Shown one piece after another: positions 9,001 to 15,000 of a DNA stretch of 24,084 bases. The stretch comes from Escherichia phage TL-2011a. The stretch is taken from the sequence record JQ011316; one strand, given 5' to 3'. Positions within the stretch are counted from its first letter, which is position 1. Each line of letters opens with the position of its first letter. Position numbers: made by a program.

Positions 9001-12000
9001 TTATACTCGATCTCTGTTAGGTTCAATGATGATTTCATGCCAGATTTTCTAATAGTGTAATATTTTCTTACATCACTGCTTGAAAATGCTTCTTGAATAA
9101 CAGCTTCTATATAAAGGCGGTCAATGCTAAGATTATCAGAGTTTGATTCAGTAACGCGTATGGCAGCTAATTCAACATTATATAAATTAAGAATGTCGAG
9201 GATGTTATTTCTCACATACTTTAATTTTTCTGGTGTGTCTAAGGTCGAAGGTATTTTAATAACATCAACACATTTGAGTGCAGACTCATTAGTGCAATAT
9301 ACAACAAAAGATGTAACTTTGGGCGCCGCTCTAACACCTAGTATTCTCATTTTTTATATCCTATTTTAGAATCAGGCCGCATCTCTGCGACCATCCATCA
9401 TCCAAACGTCTCTTCACTCACCCGAAGAAGCAGCAATCCGGGTCAGCACGCACAAGCTCAAGCGCATCAGTCAGCGAAAGTTCAGTACTGTACTGATGCC
9501 ATTTCATATCCTTCCGCATCCAATAGATTTTCCATCTATCCAGAGAACGTATGTACTTGATTCTTGCTGATGGCAGGATGTTTGTTTCACCTGGATTGCC
9601 CTGCCACACGGGGCGCTGTTCGCCGATATCTATCGTTTGGTCATTGATGCTATAAACAATATCCAGTTCATTGCGGATATGTTCAGGCGGCCTTATGCTT
9701 TCAATGAATTGGTGAACTTCTTTTTTTACTGCTTGATATTCAAGGTCATTGAACGCCATCTATCCTCCTTACCCAAACGTCTCTTCAGGCCACTGGTTAC
9801 CAGCTATGTGACGATGAAGTCACGAACTTTTCAGCCACTCCCTTGCCTCGATGTCATCCAGATGGCGAGATTGCTTCAGAATACCAGCTACATACTCCAC
9901 CTTTGCTACTTGATGATAAGGCAACGTTATAGGCCTGTGATCCTGGTTAATGCTTGTAAATTGGTATTCTCCATCTCTGTCATAGCCAAGAACCTTAATC
10001 ATGTTGTGTCCTTCAACGGTTCTGACAAACACCTCATCACCCGGGAATACTTTGGTGTTAGGCTCAATGAGTACATATTCTCCTGATTTTATTCTGGGCC
10101 ACATGCTGTCTCCTTTCACACGAAGACCAAAGGCATCTGGATCATCGCTATAAATTTTGAGCCACCCATCGCGCTCTTCGGTCATCTCGATGGCACCATC
10201 AACACCAAGAATTGCCTCACCAACCACGCGCACTAACCCTTTTTTTAATTTGCCAACAAATGAAAGAGTATCTTCATCATTCGCTCCATTTAACGAAGTG
10301 CCGTGCTGAAGCCAAACAACATCAACGTTTAGAAATTTCGCAAGCGCATTCATTTTTTCCTGACGCGGTAAAGACTCAGCATTAAACCATTTGCTAACGC
10401 CTTTGGACGAAAGAGAAAGGGCACGGGCTATAGCCATTCCCCTACCATGTTCATCAAGACCAGCTTCTTTACAGGCTTGCGCTAGCCGCTGGGCGAATTC
10501 TTTGCGCACTTTTTCATTCTGAACCATGAGTACGATACTAAAGCACTTGCAAAAACTTTCAGTTCAACCATAATACGTACTGAAAGTACGAAAAAGGATA
10601 TTCCTATGCAAAATCTTGATGAGCCGATTAAAGGTGTCGGCATCCCTGAAGTTGCGAAGGCTTGTGGAGTTAGCGAAAGGGCTGTCTATAAGTGGCTCAA
10701 AAACGGCTTCCTCCCTAAGACTGAGTTTTTTGGGAAAACTAAATACGCATCAAAAATCGAAGAGATTTCTGGTGGCAAATATCAAGCAAGCGAAATGCTT
10801 GAAATAAGCAAAAAGAACCTTCTGGCTGCATAAGTAACACCGCTATTTTCACAATGGACATTCGTCCTACGTCGCTGACAAAGCGAGTCCCAATATATCT
10901 GACCAACTAAGGCCATATGCGTTTCCACGCATACCTTTCAACTAGCTATTCACTATTGGAAATCTTAAGAAATGGAACAAACAAGTTACAGCAAACTATC
11001 ACAGCGAGAAATTGATCGCGCTGAAACTGATTTACTCATCAACCTGTCAACGCTTACCCAGCGCGGTCTGGCAAAGATGATTGGCTGTCATGAATCGAAG
11101 ATAAGCAGAACGGACTGGAGATTTATTGCTTCGGTCTTGTGTGCTTTCGGAATGGCATCAGACATCAGTCCGATTAGCAGGGCTTTTAAGTATGCGCTTG
11201 ATGGACTCACCAATAAAAAACGCCCGGCGGCAACCGAGCGTTCTGAACAAATACAAATGGAATTTTAACAACATCCAGCGAGGTAATTATATGCGAAACA
11301 AAGGCTTTAATCCACCTGATACACACAAAGAAGCTAAGCGTTTGCGCTTCCTTCGTTCCATTGATGAAAGAACTCAAATCTCTTTTGTGAAAGTTGCCAG
11401 AACTGAGCTTCTGAAGGCTGAGGCGAGGGCGTTGCTCCCGTCTCTACCAAAAGAGGAGGGATATACGTTCATTCCAAACGCATTTCTGGAAAAGCTGCTC
11501 AAAGAAGACATATCCGTAAGTCAGTTTAACGATGTTCTTAAGGTCTTTCGTCAAGGCAGGTAGTTATGAGCAATACAGCAAAAATCTACGATTTCAGCGC
11601 CGCACACGAGCGCAGGAGCAACAGGATGGAGAACCAGAAAACTGGTTACATTCCGTTGTACCGGAGCATTCTGAAACAGTCATGGGCGAAAGATGTTTAT
11701 CTTCGCACCCTGTGGGAAAACCTTCTCCTGAATGCCACCAGAAAGCCATACAAAGCGAATTTCAAAGGTCATGAATGGCATCTGCAACCCGGTCAACTGG
11801 TTGTGACAGCAGCTGATTTAGGTCTTCAGTTATGCGACAGGCATGGCAAGCCAGCAAGCCGCGATCAGGTTGAGCGGATGCTTCAGGTTTTTGTGAAAGA
11901 GGGGATGATCACCATTGATGGAGAGAAGCAAAAAGGTCGTGTGATTACCATCACAAATTACCATGAATATGCTCAAAAAATGGACGATTCACCCGCACAT

Positions 12001-15000
12001 GAAGCCGCACAAACAACCGCACATGATGCCGCACATGACGAAGCCAGTAATGGCGCGGATTTCAGCGAACATGCCGCACATGAAAGCGCACATGAAGCCG
12101 CACAAACAACCGCACATCATGAACAAGAAGGTATTAACAAGAATATAAATAATACCCCCCTACCCCCCAATGGGGGAGGCGATGGGCAGGTTAAACCTGA
12201 ACGTCGCAAGGCAGAACGAATCGACTACGAATCCTTCCTGAACGCCTACAACACAGAAGTCGGTGACAGACTTCCACATGCTGTTGAGGTCAACGAGAAA
12301 CGCAAACGCCGCCTGAAGAAAATCATCCCGCAACTGAAAACGCCAAACGTGGACGGTTTCAGAGCGTATGTCAGGGCGTTTGTGCATCAGGCCAAGCCGT
12401 TTTACTTCGGAGACAACGACACGGGCTGGACGGCAGATTTTGATTACCTGCTGAGAGAAGACTCGTTAACGGGAGTCCGGGAAGGGAAGTTTGCAGACAG
12501 GGGGATTGCATGAGACAGGATATCGAAGCGAGCGTTATCGGTGGCCTGCTGATTGGTGGATTAACGCCAACTGCCAGCGACGTTCTGGCAACGCTGGAGC
12601 CGGAGGCGTTTTCAATTCCGCTCTACCGGAAAGCCTTCGAGGTTATCCGTAAGCAGGCGCGAAACAGAAACCTAATCGACGCGCTGATGGTTGCCGAGGC
12701 GTGCGGAGAGGAGCATTTCACGTCAATCCTGATGACCAGCAAAAACTGCCCGAGTGCCGCAAACCTGAAGGGATATGCCGGAATGGTCGCGGATAACTAT
12801 CACCGCCGTCTGGTGCTGGAAATCATGGATGAAATGCGTGAACCAATCCAAAGCGGAACCATCGACGCATCGAGTCAGGCGATGGATGAACTTGTAAAAC
12901 GTCTCTCAGCCATCAGAAAGCCCCGTGACGAGGTTAAACCTGTACGGTTAGGGGAAATCATCACTGACTACACTGACACGCTTGACAGGCGTCTGAGGAA
13001 CGGAGAAGAGTCAGATACCCTGAAGACCGGAATCGAAGAACTTGACGCCATCACCGGAGGGATGAACGCAGAAGACCTGGTGATAATCGCTGCTCGTCCT
13101 GGTATGGGGAAAGCAATGGCGCTAAGCGAAGGGATTTTACTTGCAGATGGCACCTGGACTACTCACGGAGAAGTCAAAATTGGCGATCGCATCGCGTCAA
13201 TAGACGGGCTTCCTTCGGAGGTAATTGGCGTCTTCCCACAAGGGAAGAAATTCACATATTTAGTCACCTTTGAAGACGGACGTAGCGTGAAATGTGCCGA
13301 CAACCACTTATGGGAAATTTCATCATCAAGATTTACTGGTAAACGCGTTGTTGATACTGATGCGCTGGCTGGGATGCTACAAAAAACACGTTATCAGGGA
13401 AGAATAAGAGTGCCATCCTTGACCGGAGACTTTGGTAAAAATATTCCCCTTGATGGTTGGGTTATTGGGGCTCTACTTGGTGACGGTTCGTTGATAAAAG
13501 GCATCAAATTCACCAACTCGGAAGAATATGTCCTGAGCCGCATGAGTGATGCAATTGCACCATTGCGACTGGTTAAGGTAGGAGAGAATGATTATTTGAT
13601 AAGCAACCAAAAAGGCCAGAAGAACCCACTATTGGACAAACTACGTGGCATTGGGGTGATCGGGAAAGGTGCGTCCGAGAAGGAAATCCCAGCAGAAATT
13701 TTTAGTGCTAGCAAAGAAATACGTACCGGTGTTTTAACTGGCCTTCTCGAGACAGATGGCTGGGTTGAGAAGTCCGGATGCATCCGCTTTAGTTCATCCA
13801 GTCAGAAATTAGCTAAAGGATTAGTAAGGCTTGTTAGATCTTTAGGTGGAACCGCCAAAGAATCCAGCAGGACGGGAATAGTTTACACGTACAAAGGAGA
13901 GAAGCACGACGGACTTGATGCACACATGGTCAGCATGAAGTTGCCATCATCTTTGATAGAGCAAATTCACTCACCACGTTTACGCAAAAATCTCGGGATT
14001 AACAGGCTTGGCGACGTTGGTGTGGGTATCAAATCGGTTGAAGTTGTTGAGCCAGAAGAGTGTCTCTGCATCATGGTAAGCCATCCTAGCCATCTCTATG
14101 TGACAACGGATTACATCGTTACGCACAATACGGAACTGGCGCTGAAGATTGCCGAAGGCGTTGCAAGTCGTGTTATTCCTGGTTCTGACGTCCGGCGCGG
14201 GGTATTGATTTTCTCAATGGAAATGAGCGCATTGCAGATTGCAGAGCGAAGCATTGCCAACGCCGGGAGGATGTCGGTTAGCGTACTGCGAAATCCTGCA
14301 TCGATGGATGACGAAGGCTGGGCACGTGTTGCTAACGGCATGAGTCAGCTTGCAGATTTGGATGTATGGGTAGTCGATGCCTCGCGGTTATCGGTCGAAG
14401 AAATACGCTCAATCGCAGAACGGCACAAACAGGAAAATCCAAACCTCTCACTCATCATGGCGGATTATCTTGGCCTGATTGAGAAGCCGAAAGCAGACCG
14501 CAACGACCTCGCAATTGCTCACATCTCCGGAAGCCTGAAGGCGATGGCGAAAGACCTGAAAACGCCAGTTATCTCCCTAAGTCAGCTTTCGCGCGATGTT
14601 GAGAAGCGACCAAATAAACGCCCGACAAACGCAGATTTGCGTGATTCAGGAAGCATTGAACAGGACGCAGACTCAATCATCATGCTCTATCGGGAAGCGG
14701 TATATGACGAGAACAGTAGCGCCGCGCCATTTGCTGAAATCATCGTGACGAAAAACCGTTTTGGCTCACTTGGTACGGTTTACCAGCGGTTCTGTAACGG
14801 ACACTTTGTTGCATGTGACCAGGATGAAGCCAGACAGATTTGCACAGCATCAAATGCACCTGCTGCGCGTGGCAGACGATATGCACAAGGGGCTGACGTA
14901 TGAATAAAAAACAATTAGCTATTCTCGAAAAGGCATGGGATGCACAAATATCATGCGCTTTGAAAGAACAGGCACTACCAATAATCCAGACCAAATCGAA

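Follow-up and report, generated by a model that had tools for sequence, protein, structure and literature searches.

Lambdoid phages keep their replication origin inside gene O or gene 18, and the origins of lambda and P22 carry four repeats of ~20 bp (PMC8022706; PMC7466680). For phage L, an origin has been predicted inside gene 18 with six imprecise 11-bp repeats, TGTCCAACGGA (PMC8022706). Here we describe an element of the same kind in a 24,084-nucleotide (nt) stretch of Escherichia phage TL-2011a (sequence record JQ011316), called the window below and including the early region of a lambdoid Stx2a prophage: an array of 12-nt direct repeats inside the O-like replication initiator gene, followed by an A-rich tract. 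Judging from sequence comparisons, the block at about 11965-12150 is very likely the phage replication origin, situated inside its own initiator gene as in lambda. The kind of element is a textbook one (ori-lambda) and what is new is the sequence and the form of its iterons, 12-nt direct repeats without dyad arranged in two clusters; literature searches returned no description of this 12-nt iteron type, and a query with the repeat sequence gave only unrelated primer matches.

The comparison with lambda shows both a common plan and clear differences. Lambda, like the window, has a Phage_rep_O gene with repeats after the DNA-binding part and an A-rich, low-GC tract downstream: the domain of lambda O covers residues 22-115, the iterons follow from residue 117 (annotated at gene nt 349-433) and the A-rich tract comes next. 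In both cases the linker between the two protein domains is encoded by the repeats, and the O gene is a mosaic whose seam lies at the origin. The four lambda iterons, 18 nt long by annotation and about 19 bp according to the literature, possess an internal dyad and are spaced by 20-24 nt, whereas the window presents eight 12-nt direct repeats without dyad, in a 4+4 arrangement with a 33-nt spacer. The N-terminal domains (N-domains) of the two initiators hardly align (BLASTP gives E = 0.004, for the first 65 residues), and the helicase partner also differs, being a phage DnaB-type protein in the window and a P-type loader in lambda. The HK97 gp54/gp55 and P22 gene 18/gene 12 modules resemble the window by having the origin inside the initiator gene, a C-terminal domain (C-domain) with 95-96% nucleotide identity and a DnaB-type helicase gene with overlapping stop and start codons. 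HK97 and ST104, however, have a lambda-like N-domain, unlike the subtype of the window, and at the equivalent place HK97 carries four ~18-nt dyad repeats, ATTAGCCAAGTCGGCTAA, 20-24 nt apart, together with an A-rich tract, instead of 12-nt units. Phage L is close to the window in that short repeats of about one helical turn lie in a lambdoid initiator gene and the origin was proposed from sequence, but its repeat sequence, repeat number and initiator sequence are different. Finally, iteron plasmid origins (for example pSC101, R6K, P1) resemble the arrangement inferred for the window, with direct repeats bound by a winged-helix initiator beside an AT-rich unwinding region. Plasmid iterons are typically 17-22 bp long and situated outside the rep gene, often with DnaA boxes, whereas the 12-nt units of the window belong to the initiator gene itself and their array contains no DnaA box.

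The units of the window (Table 1) are exactly 12 nt each, start at 11993, 12005, 12017, 12029, 12074, 12086, 12098 and 12110, and share the core (C/G)CGCACA, with CCGCACA opening seven of them and GCGCACA the remaining one. A preliminary description of the window had located the array correctly in the O-like gene but counted about seven copies; the count is eight, four in each of two clusters, and their regularity is greater than was first reported. The exact motif CCGCACA occurs 7 times within 124 bp and 9 times on both strands of the whole window, for 2.97 +/- 1.87 expected, a count reached by 0 of 100 shuffles, and no second array of the core motif was found elsewhere in the window. Within the spacer, the sequence GCCAGTAATGGCGCGG is largely conserved among relatives, and the end of the spacer is a ninth, degenerate unit (12062, TCAGCGAACATG). 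Translated in the O frame, every unit has the form x-A-H/Q-x (PAHE AAQT TAHD AAHD ... AAHE SAHE AAQT TAHH), which agrees with the His/Ala-rich linker proposed previously. The repeats begin 10 codons past the end of the Phage_rep_O domain (residue 132, 11961), just after the segment encoding the DNA-binding domain. The A/T-rich tract lies directly downstream, promoter-distal to the repeats, with a composition of A19 T6 G4 C2 over 12122-12152 and the A on the top strand; the AT-rich stretch first delimited as 12127-12155 has 21% GC, for 46% in the window. The order of domain, repeats and A-rich tract is thus the same as in lambda, as the preliminary description had stated.

Relatives were collected with a degenerate-pattern scan of one genome per species, which gave 53 loci, 47 of them full-length and usable. 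The comparison set comprises 49 loci from ~50 Enterobacterales species, including the window and the phage loci L001 and L002, with 53-81% amino-acid identity between N-domains; viral-contig relatives that are 96-100% identical were used for copy-number counts and not for covariation. All comparison loci present 2-5 units, a spacer, 3-4 units and then a nearly invariant CATCATGAACAAGAAGGTAATAACAA...AAA tract. Of the 49 loci, 24 have a 3+3 and 20 a 4+4 arrangement, with 2 to 5 units per cluster, and the spacer measures 33 nt in 45. The Klebsiella phages ST16-OXA48phi5.2 and Mulock and the Yersinia phage vB_YenM_210.17 have the N-domain subtype of the window (76-81% nucleotide identity), and their O genes have the same succession of CCGCACA units (4+4 or 3+3), spacer and AT tract, but they differ from the window by a lambda-O-type C-domain followed by a lambda-P-type gene; the records of these three phages contain no origin annotation. 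Within a locus the units are essentially uniform, all CGCACA (19 loci, A-type) or all CGCGCA (30 loci, G-type, often mixed with CGAGCA). This A/G difference in the core is synonymous and has changed in concert across all the units of a locus.

The codons of the array indicate selection at the DNA level. The units were picked by protein pattern alone and their codons inspected afterwards: over 337 units, an 8-nt core, CCGC(A/G)CAT, is fixed at every codon position, while the four positions that end each unit show no such constraint. In A-type loci the core percentages are C80 C100 G100 C100 A99 C100 A97 T85 and in G-type loci C85 C99 G100 C68 G98 C94 A91 T88, so that the positions are 85-100% fixed, except for the first one and for a C/A split at position 4 in G-type loci. 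At the four-fold-degenerate site preceding the core, all 217 cases have C, versus 30% elsewhere. Alanine codons inside the units are GCG (129) or GCA (118), with GCT used once and GCC never, whereas all four are common elsewhere in the same genes (389/335/279/221); similarly, histidine is encoded by CAT 314 times and by CAC 11 times in the units, versus 129 to 108 elsewhere. In the codon alignment of the 49 loci, the normalised synonymous-codon entropy falls from 0.68 for residues 20-133 to 0.26 for residues 134-195 (Mann-Whitney p = 4e-12), and the constrained block covers, in addition to the units, the spacer, the A-rich tract, which is nearly invariant at synonymous sites across loci, and 28 nt before the first unit. 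Since the synonymous sites are fixed, it is the DNA sequence itself that is read, and the Ala-His peptide is a by-product. In the AlphaFold2 model, linker residues 137-213 have no secondary structure and a predicted local distance difference test score (pLDDT) below 50; this predicted disorder would make both a sequence imposed by the DNA and changes in copy number tolerable. The 28 nt upstream of the array (11965-11992, GAATATGCTCAAAAAATGGACGATTCAC), which have an A6 run and have lost synonymous variation as the repeats have, may also be part of the origin, for example as a bend or a host-factor site.

A candidate reader of the units is the N-domain of the O-like protein itself, for which AlphaFold2 predicts helices at residues 82-88 and 99-111 and a beta-hairpin at 115-129, with block-mean pLDDT of ~70-85 over residues 41-130. 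Of all the columns of the N-domain alignment, only those of residues 82 and 100 distinguish the core types without exception: at 82, A/P contrasts with S/T/L, and at 100, A-type loci have D and G-type loci have H. Each of the two residues lies at the beginning of one of the helices predicted by the model. A neighbour-joining tree of the N-domains interleaves the core types (the A-type locus L098, for instance, stands beside the G-type loci L097 and L125), and residues 110 and 125, which are physically between position 100 and the repeats, are more weakly associated with the core type. The interleaved tree and this weaker association argue for a functional coupling rather than for linkage alone.

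A locus with a more divergent N-domain, L138 (P0087), has SPQ in place of Ser98-Arg99-Asp100 of the window. Its array (L138 3411-3560) is made of 3+3 12-nt units with a different, CCGATGA-like core (ACCCGATGA / ATGCGATAA / ATCCGATAA), and its scaffold of spacer and AT tract, in which AACAAGAAGGTAGTT is duplicated, its C-domain and its helicase type are those of the window. The repeat sequence consequently changes with the initiator N-domain, the window, L138, HK97 and lambda having each their own repeats at the equivalent place. At the sequence level, this pairing corresponds to the classical pattern of initiator-iteron specificity of lambdoid phages (PMC8022706; PMC7466680). Taken with the lambda-like order, the selection on synonymous sites and the covariation of core and N-domain, the replacement of the core in L138 supports the likely origin put forward in the preliminary description.

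Copy number varies among close relatives. O proteins 98-100% identical to that of the window have 1, 2, 3 or 4 copies of a 31-aa (93-nt) module made of a cluster plus spacer (variants P0001, P0011, P0016, P0042, P0044, P0053, P0061 and P0066), the two-cluster form corresponding to by far the largest protein clusters. The 4+4 arrangement is present in 57 of the 80 closest viral contigs, the rest deviating from it by one unit or containing one stray unit.

Such variation, together with the predicted disorder of the linker and the range of 2 to 5 units per cluster, is what would be expected if the repeats were a slippage-prone coding minisatellite producing a flexible Ala/His linker, the DNA sequence having no function. 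We nevertheless consider this quite unlikely, since a constraint on the peptide alone would leave synonymous sites free, whereas the core is fixed at all codon positions, with an invariant C at the four-fold site before it and a near-complete avoidance of GCC and GCT. Moreover, the synonymous GCA/GCG state is uniform in each locus and tracks the helix-turn-helix residues, and the AT tract and the segment 11965-11992, which are not repetitive, are equally constrained. A synonymous constraint could also come from the 61-aa alternate-frame open reading frame (ORF) that is open in the window across the repeats, or from a structured or protein-binding RNA in the O mRNA, the RNA fold of 11960-12160 being slightly more stable than that of shuffled sequences (z = -2.03). 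This explanation is most unlikely: the core is fixed also at the third positions of the alternate frame, the repeats are direct and not complementary, offering no conserved helices, and the sole Rfam match with E <= 1 is a chance-level snoRNA upstream of the array, rejected as a known RNA family (E = 0.48, 25.2 bits for a gathering score of 43 bits). The ORF was rejected as a gene, as the preliminary description had anticipated in calling it spurious: in many of the 49 loci its start codon is missing or shifted and stop codons fall inside the repeats, 3 codons after the first unit in L099 and L113 and after 7 codons in L086.

A constraint at the DNA level shows that a sequence is read without identifying the reader, so the repeats might instead be sites for host DnaA, another phage regulator or some further protein distinct from the O-like initiator, or they might serve in the control or exclusion of replication and not as the origin itself; in lambda, extra origin iterons carried on a plasmid can reportedly inhibit phage replication. 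Several observations make this unlikely, however. The array has no DnaA-box match even with one mismatch allowed, and the count of such matches in the window is that of chance (49 versus 50.5 expected). The core state co-varies with the predicted reading helix of the O protein itself, and in L138 another N-domain is accompanied by another core type, with no change of C-domain or helicase. The array also stands alone in the window.

The reading of the block as an origin meets some difficulties. The units are direct repeats with a 12-nt period and lack the internal dyad of the lambda, HK97 and P22 iterons, no inverted repeat being found within the array, so the binding mode is not simply transferable from lambda; the window thus departs from the ~18-20-bp dyad iterons, about two helical turns apart, of ori-lambda, a feature that we took as typical (lambda, P22, HK97) and not as strictly defining, with phage L as a predicted exception. 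The AlphaFold2 model is moderately confident (mean pLDDT of 59.7 overall, block means of ~70-85 in the folded domains), and its fold matches, although all to winged-helix regulators, are non-significant (best E = 0.04); a sequence search gave no homologue of the initiator with a solved structure. Physical linkage and common descent could account for part of the covariation at residues 82 and 100, and the neighbour-joining tree is unbootstrapped. Finally, some near-identical O proteins keep only one cluster of 3-4 units.

The second half of the gene has another history. Gene nt 48-584 are 76-81% identical to O genes of the Klebsiella and Yersinia phages, and gene nt 572-948 are 95-96% identical to HK97 O, to gene 18 of the P22-like ST104 and to Nil2 O, which places the seam of the mosaic within the AT tract. 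This tract, common to otherwise unrelated halves of O genes, probably provides the short homology for module exchange. For 49 of the 50 loci compared (the comparison set plus L138), the gene that follows O can be predicted from the type of C-domain: a lambda-O-type C-domain is followed by a lambda-P-type gene in 46 and an HK97-type C-domain by a DnaB-type helicase gene in three (the window, L126 and L138), the remaining locus having another C-domain, of a type that is not assignable, followed by a P-like gene. The window therefore shares with the P22 gene 18/12 module the gp18/gp54-type C-domain and the DnaB-type helicase, and lacks the P22/HK97-type N-domain with four ~20-bp repeats. From the pairing of C-domain and downstream gene, the N-domain, iterons and AT tract form a cassette that is joined to either of two back ends for helicase recruitment.

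From these data we infer how the origin could operate, including protein binding, unwinding, helicase loading and firing at the block. After induction, transcription from the cro-side promoter would lead to expression of the O-like protein, whose N-terminal winged helix-turn-helix would bind the eight 12-bp units (core CCGCACAT), several proteins forming an ordered complex there. The adjacent A-rich tract would be strained and opened by this complex, and the C-domain of HK97/P22-gp18 type would recruit the phage DnaB-type helicase encoded just downstream, active after splicing of its intein. The phage helicase route would in this way substitute for the P-mediated hijack of host DnaB in lambda. 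Because the DNA motif lies within a coding region, a disordered Ala-His linker is imposed between two protein domains.

These results locate the putative origin in a widespread prophage family of enterobacteria, Stx2a-converting and other, and provide an example of one DNA stretch with two codes, in which an inferred protein-binding array forces a disordered Ala-His linker. The pairing of A or G in the core with two helix residues constitutes a testable recognition rule, which could predict replication incompatibility or cross-activation between co-resident prophages, and the seam in the AT tract shows how a cassette of initiator and origin is exchanged between back ends with a P loader and back ends with a DnaB helicase. 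Nothing in these results alters the textbook view of lambdoid replication. As a bolder and rather doubtful extension, the window might represent a distinct class of lambdoid origins, in which non-palindromic 12-bp units would be read head-to-tail by monomers and not by dimers, the 93-bp module could be duplicated to give 1 to 4 copies, Asp100/Ala82 would read A at core position 5 and His100/Ser82 would read G, with mutually incompatible origin types among the prophages of Enterobacterales.

Table 1. Positions of the proposed origin, of the initiator domains and of the neighbouring genes in the window.
Feature	Position	Strand	Sequence or evidence
CI-type repressor	9820-10527	minus	Peptidase_S24 + helix-turn-helix
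Cro-like helix-turn-helix protein	10606-10833		helix-turn-helix protein, upstream of the O-like gene
CII	10972-11268		Pfam Phage_CII, 1.7e-35
O-like replication initiator gene, 315 aa	11566-12513	+	ORF; Pfam PF04492 Phage_rep_O; mosaic of N-domain, repeat-encoded linker and C-domain
Predicted winged helix-turn-helix coding region, residues 20-136	11623..11973	+	AlphaFold2 model, fold matches
Alternate-frame ORF, 61 aa, by-product of the repeats	11963..12148	+	start and stops unconserved in 49 loci
Block under synonymous-site constraint, proposed origin extent	11965..12150		entropy drop; covers 28 nt before the first unit, spacer and AT tract
Iteron cluster 1	11993..12040	+	four 12-nt units: CCGCACATGAAG, CCGCACAAACAA, CCGCACATGATG, CCGCACATGACG
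Spacer, 33 nt	12041..12073	+	AAGCCAGTAATGGCGCGGATTTCAGCGAACATG; last 12 nt are a degenerate unit
Iteron cluster 2	12074..12121	+	four 12-nt units: CCGCACATGAAA, GCGCACATGAAG, CCGCACAAACAA, CCGCACATCATG
A-rich tract, proposed DNA-unwinding element	12122..12152	+	AACAAGAAGGTATTAACAAGAATATAAATAA; 19% GC
O-gene mosaic seam	12137..12149		matches end at gene nt 584 and begin at gene nt 572; inside the AT tract
C-terminal domain, HK97 gp54 / P22 gp18 type, proposed helicase-recruitment domain	12154..12510	+	nucleotide identity, downstream-gene pairing
Hairpin-capable C-run/G-run	12159..12179		CCC.CCCCC AATG GGGGG.AGG; right edge of the AT tract; DNA fold z = -2.84
DnaB-type replicative helicase gene	12510..14903	+	Pfam DnaB_C 3.7e-71, DnaB, LAGLIDADG_3, Hom_end, Hint; start overlaps the O stop codon

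The O-like gene belongs to the early rightward operon, after cro and cII and with cI also upstream, and its product matches PF04492 Phage_rep_O over residues 20-132 with 55.9 bits (cut-off 28.7; E 6.3e-15). The gene shares 99.7% identity with its counterparts in dozens of Stx2a-converting phages and 98% with the O genes of the Escherichia phages JEP4 and Gally; in the public records examined, of Stx2a-converting phages and other relatives, no origin is annotated at the O locus. A search of the region for other signals found no promoter-like site, and two terminator-like hits, on the minus strand inside the repeats, were rejected as being at chance level. An inverted repeat, GGTATTA/TAATACC, around the AT tract was likewise rejected as a part of the origin, being absent from L001 and L138. 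In lambda, a palindrome is located to the right of the AT tract; at the corresponding edge, the C-run/G-run of the window, whose sequence is also present in L138, belongs to the C-domain module of HK97/P22 type and encodes PLPPNGGG.

The downstream helicase is interrupted by an intein of 339 aa (13113-14129), inserted in the Walker A loop (ARPGMGK / AMALSEG...YIVTHN) and matching LAGLIDADG/homing-endonuclease and Hint families; it starts with Ala and ends with His-Asn, and the next extein residue is Thr. The helicase of HK97 lacks the intein, and intein-less homologues in L138 (the one aligned), L126 and HK97 measure 455-458 aa. Between cII and O, a 93-aa ORF (11282-11563) gave no Pfam match, nor did the 86-aa gene found at the same place in L138 and L139. 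The first ten residues of the O-like protein (11566-11595), MSNTAKIYDF, resemble the MTNTAKILNF of lambda O, although the rest of the N-domain can barely be aligned, and this likeness may come from a further small patch of mosaicism or from conservation of the context in which translation starts.

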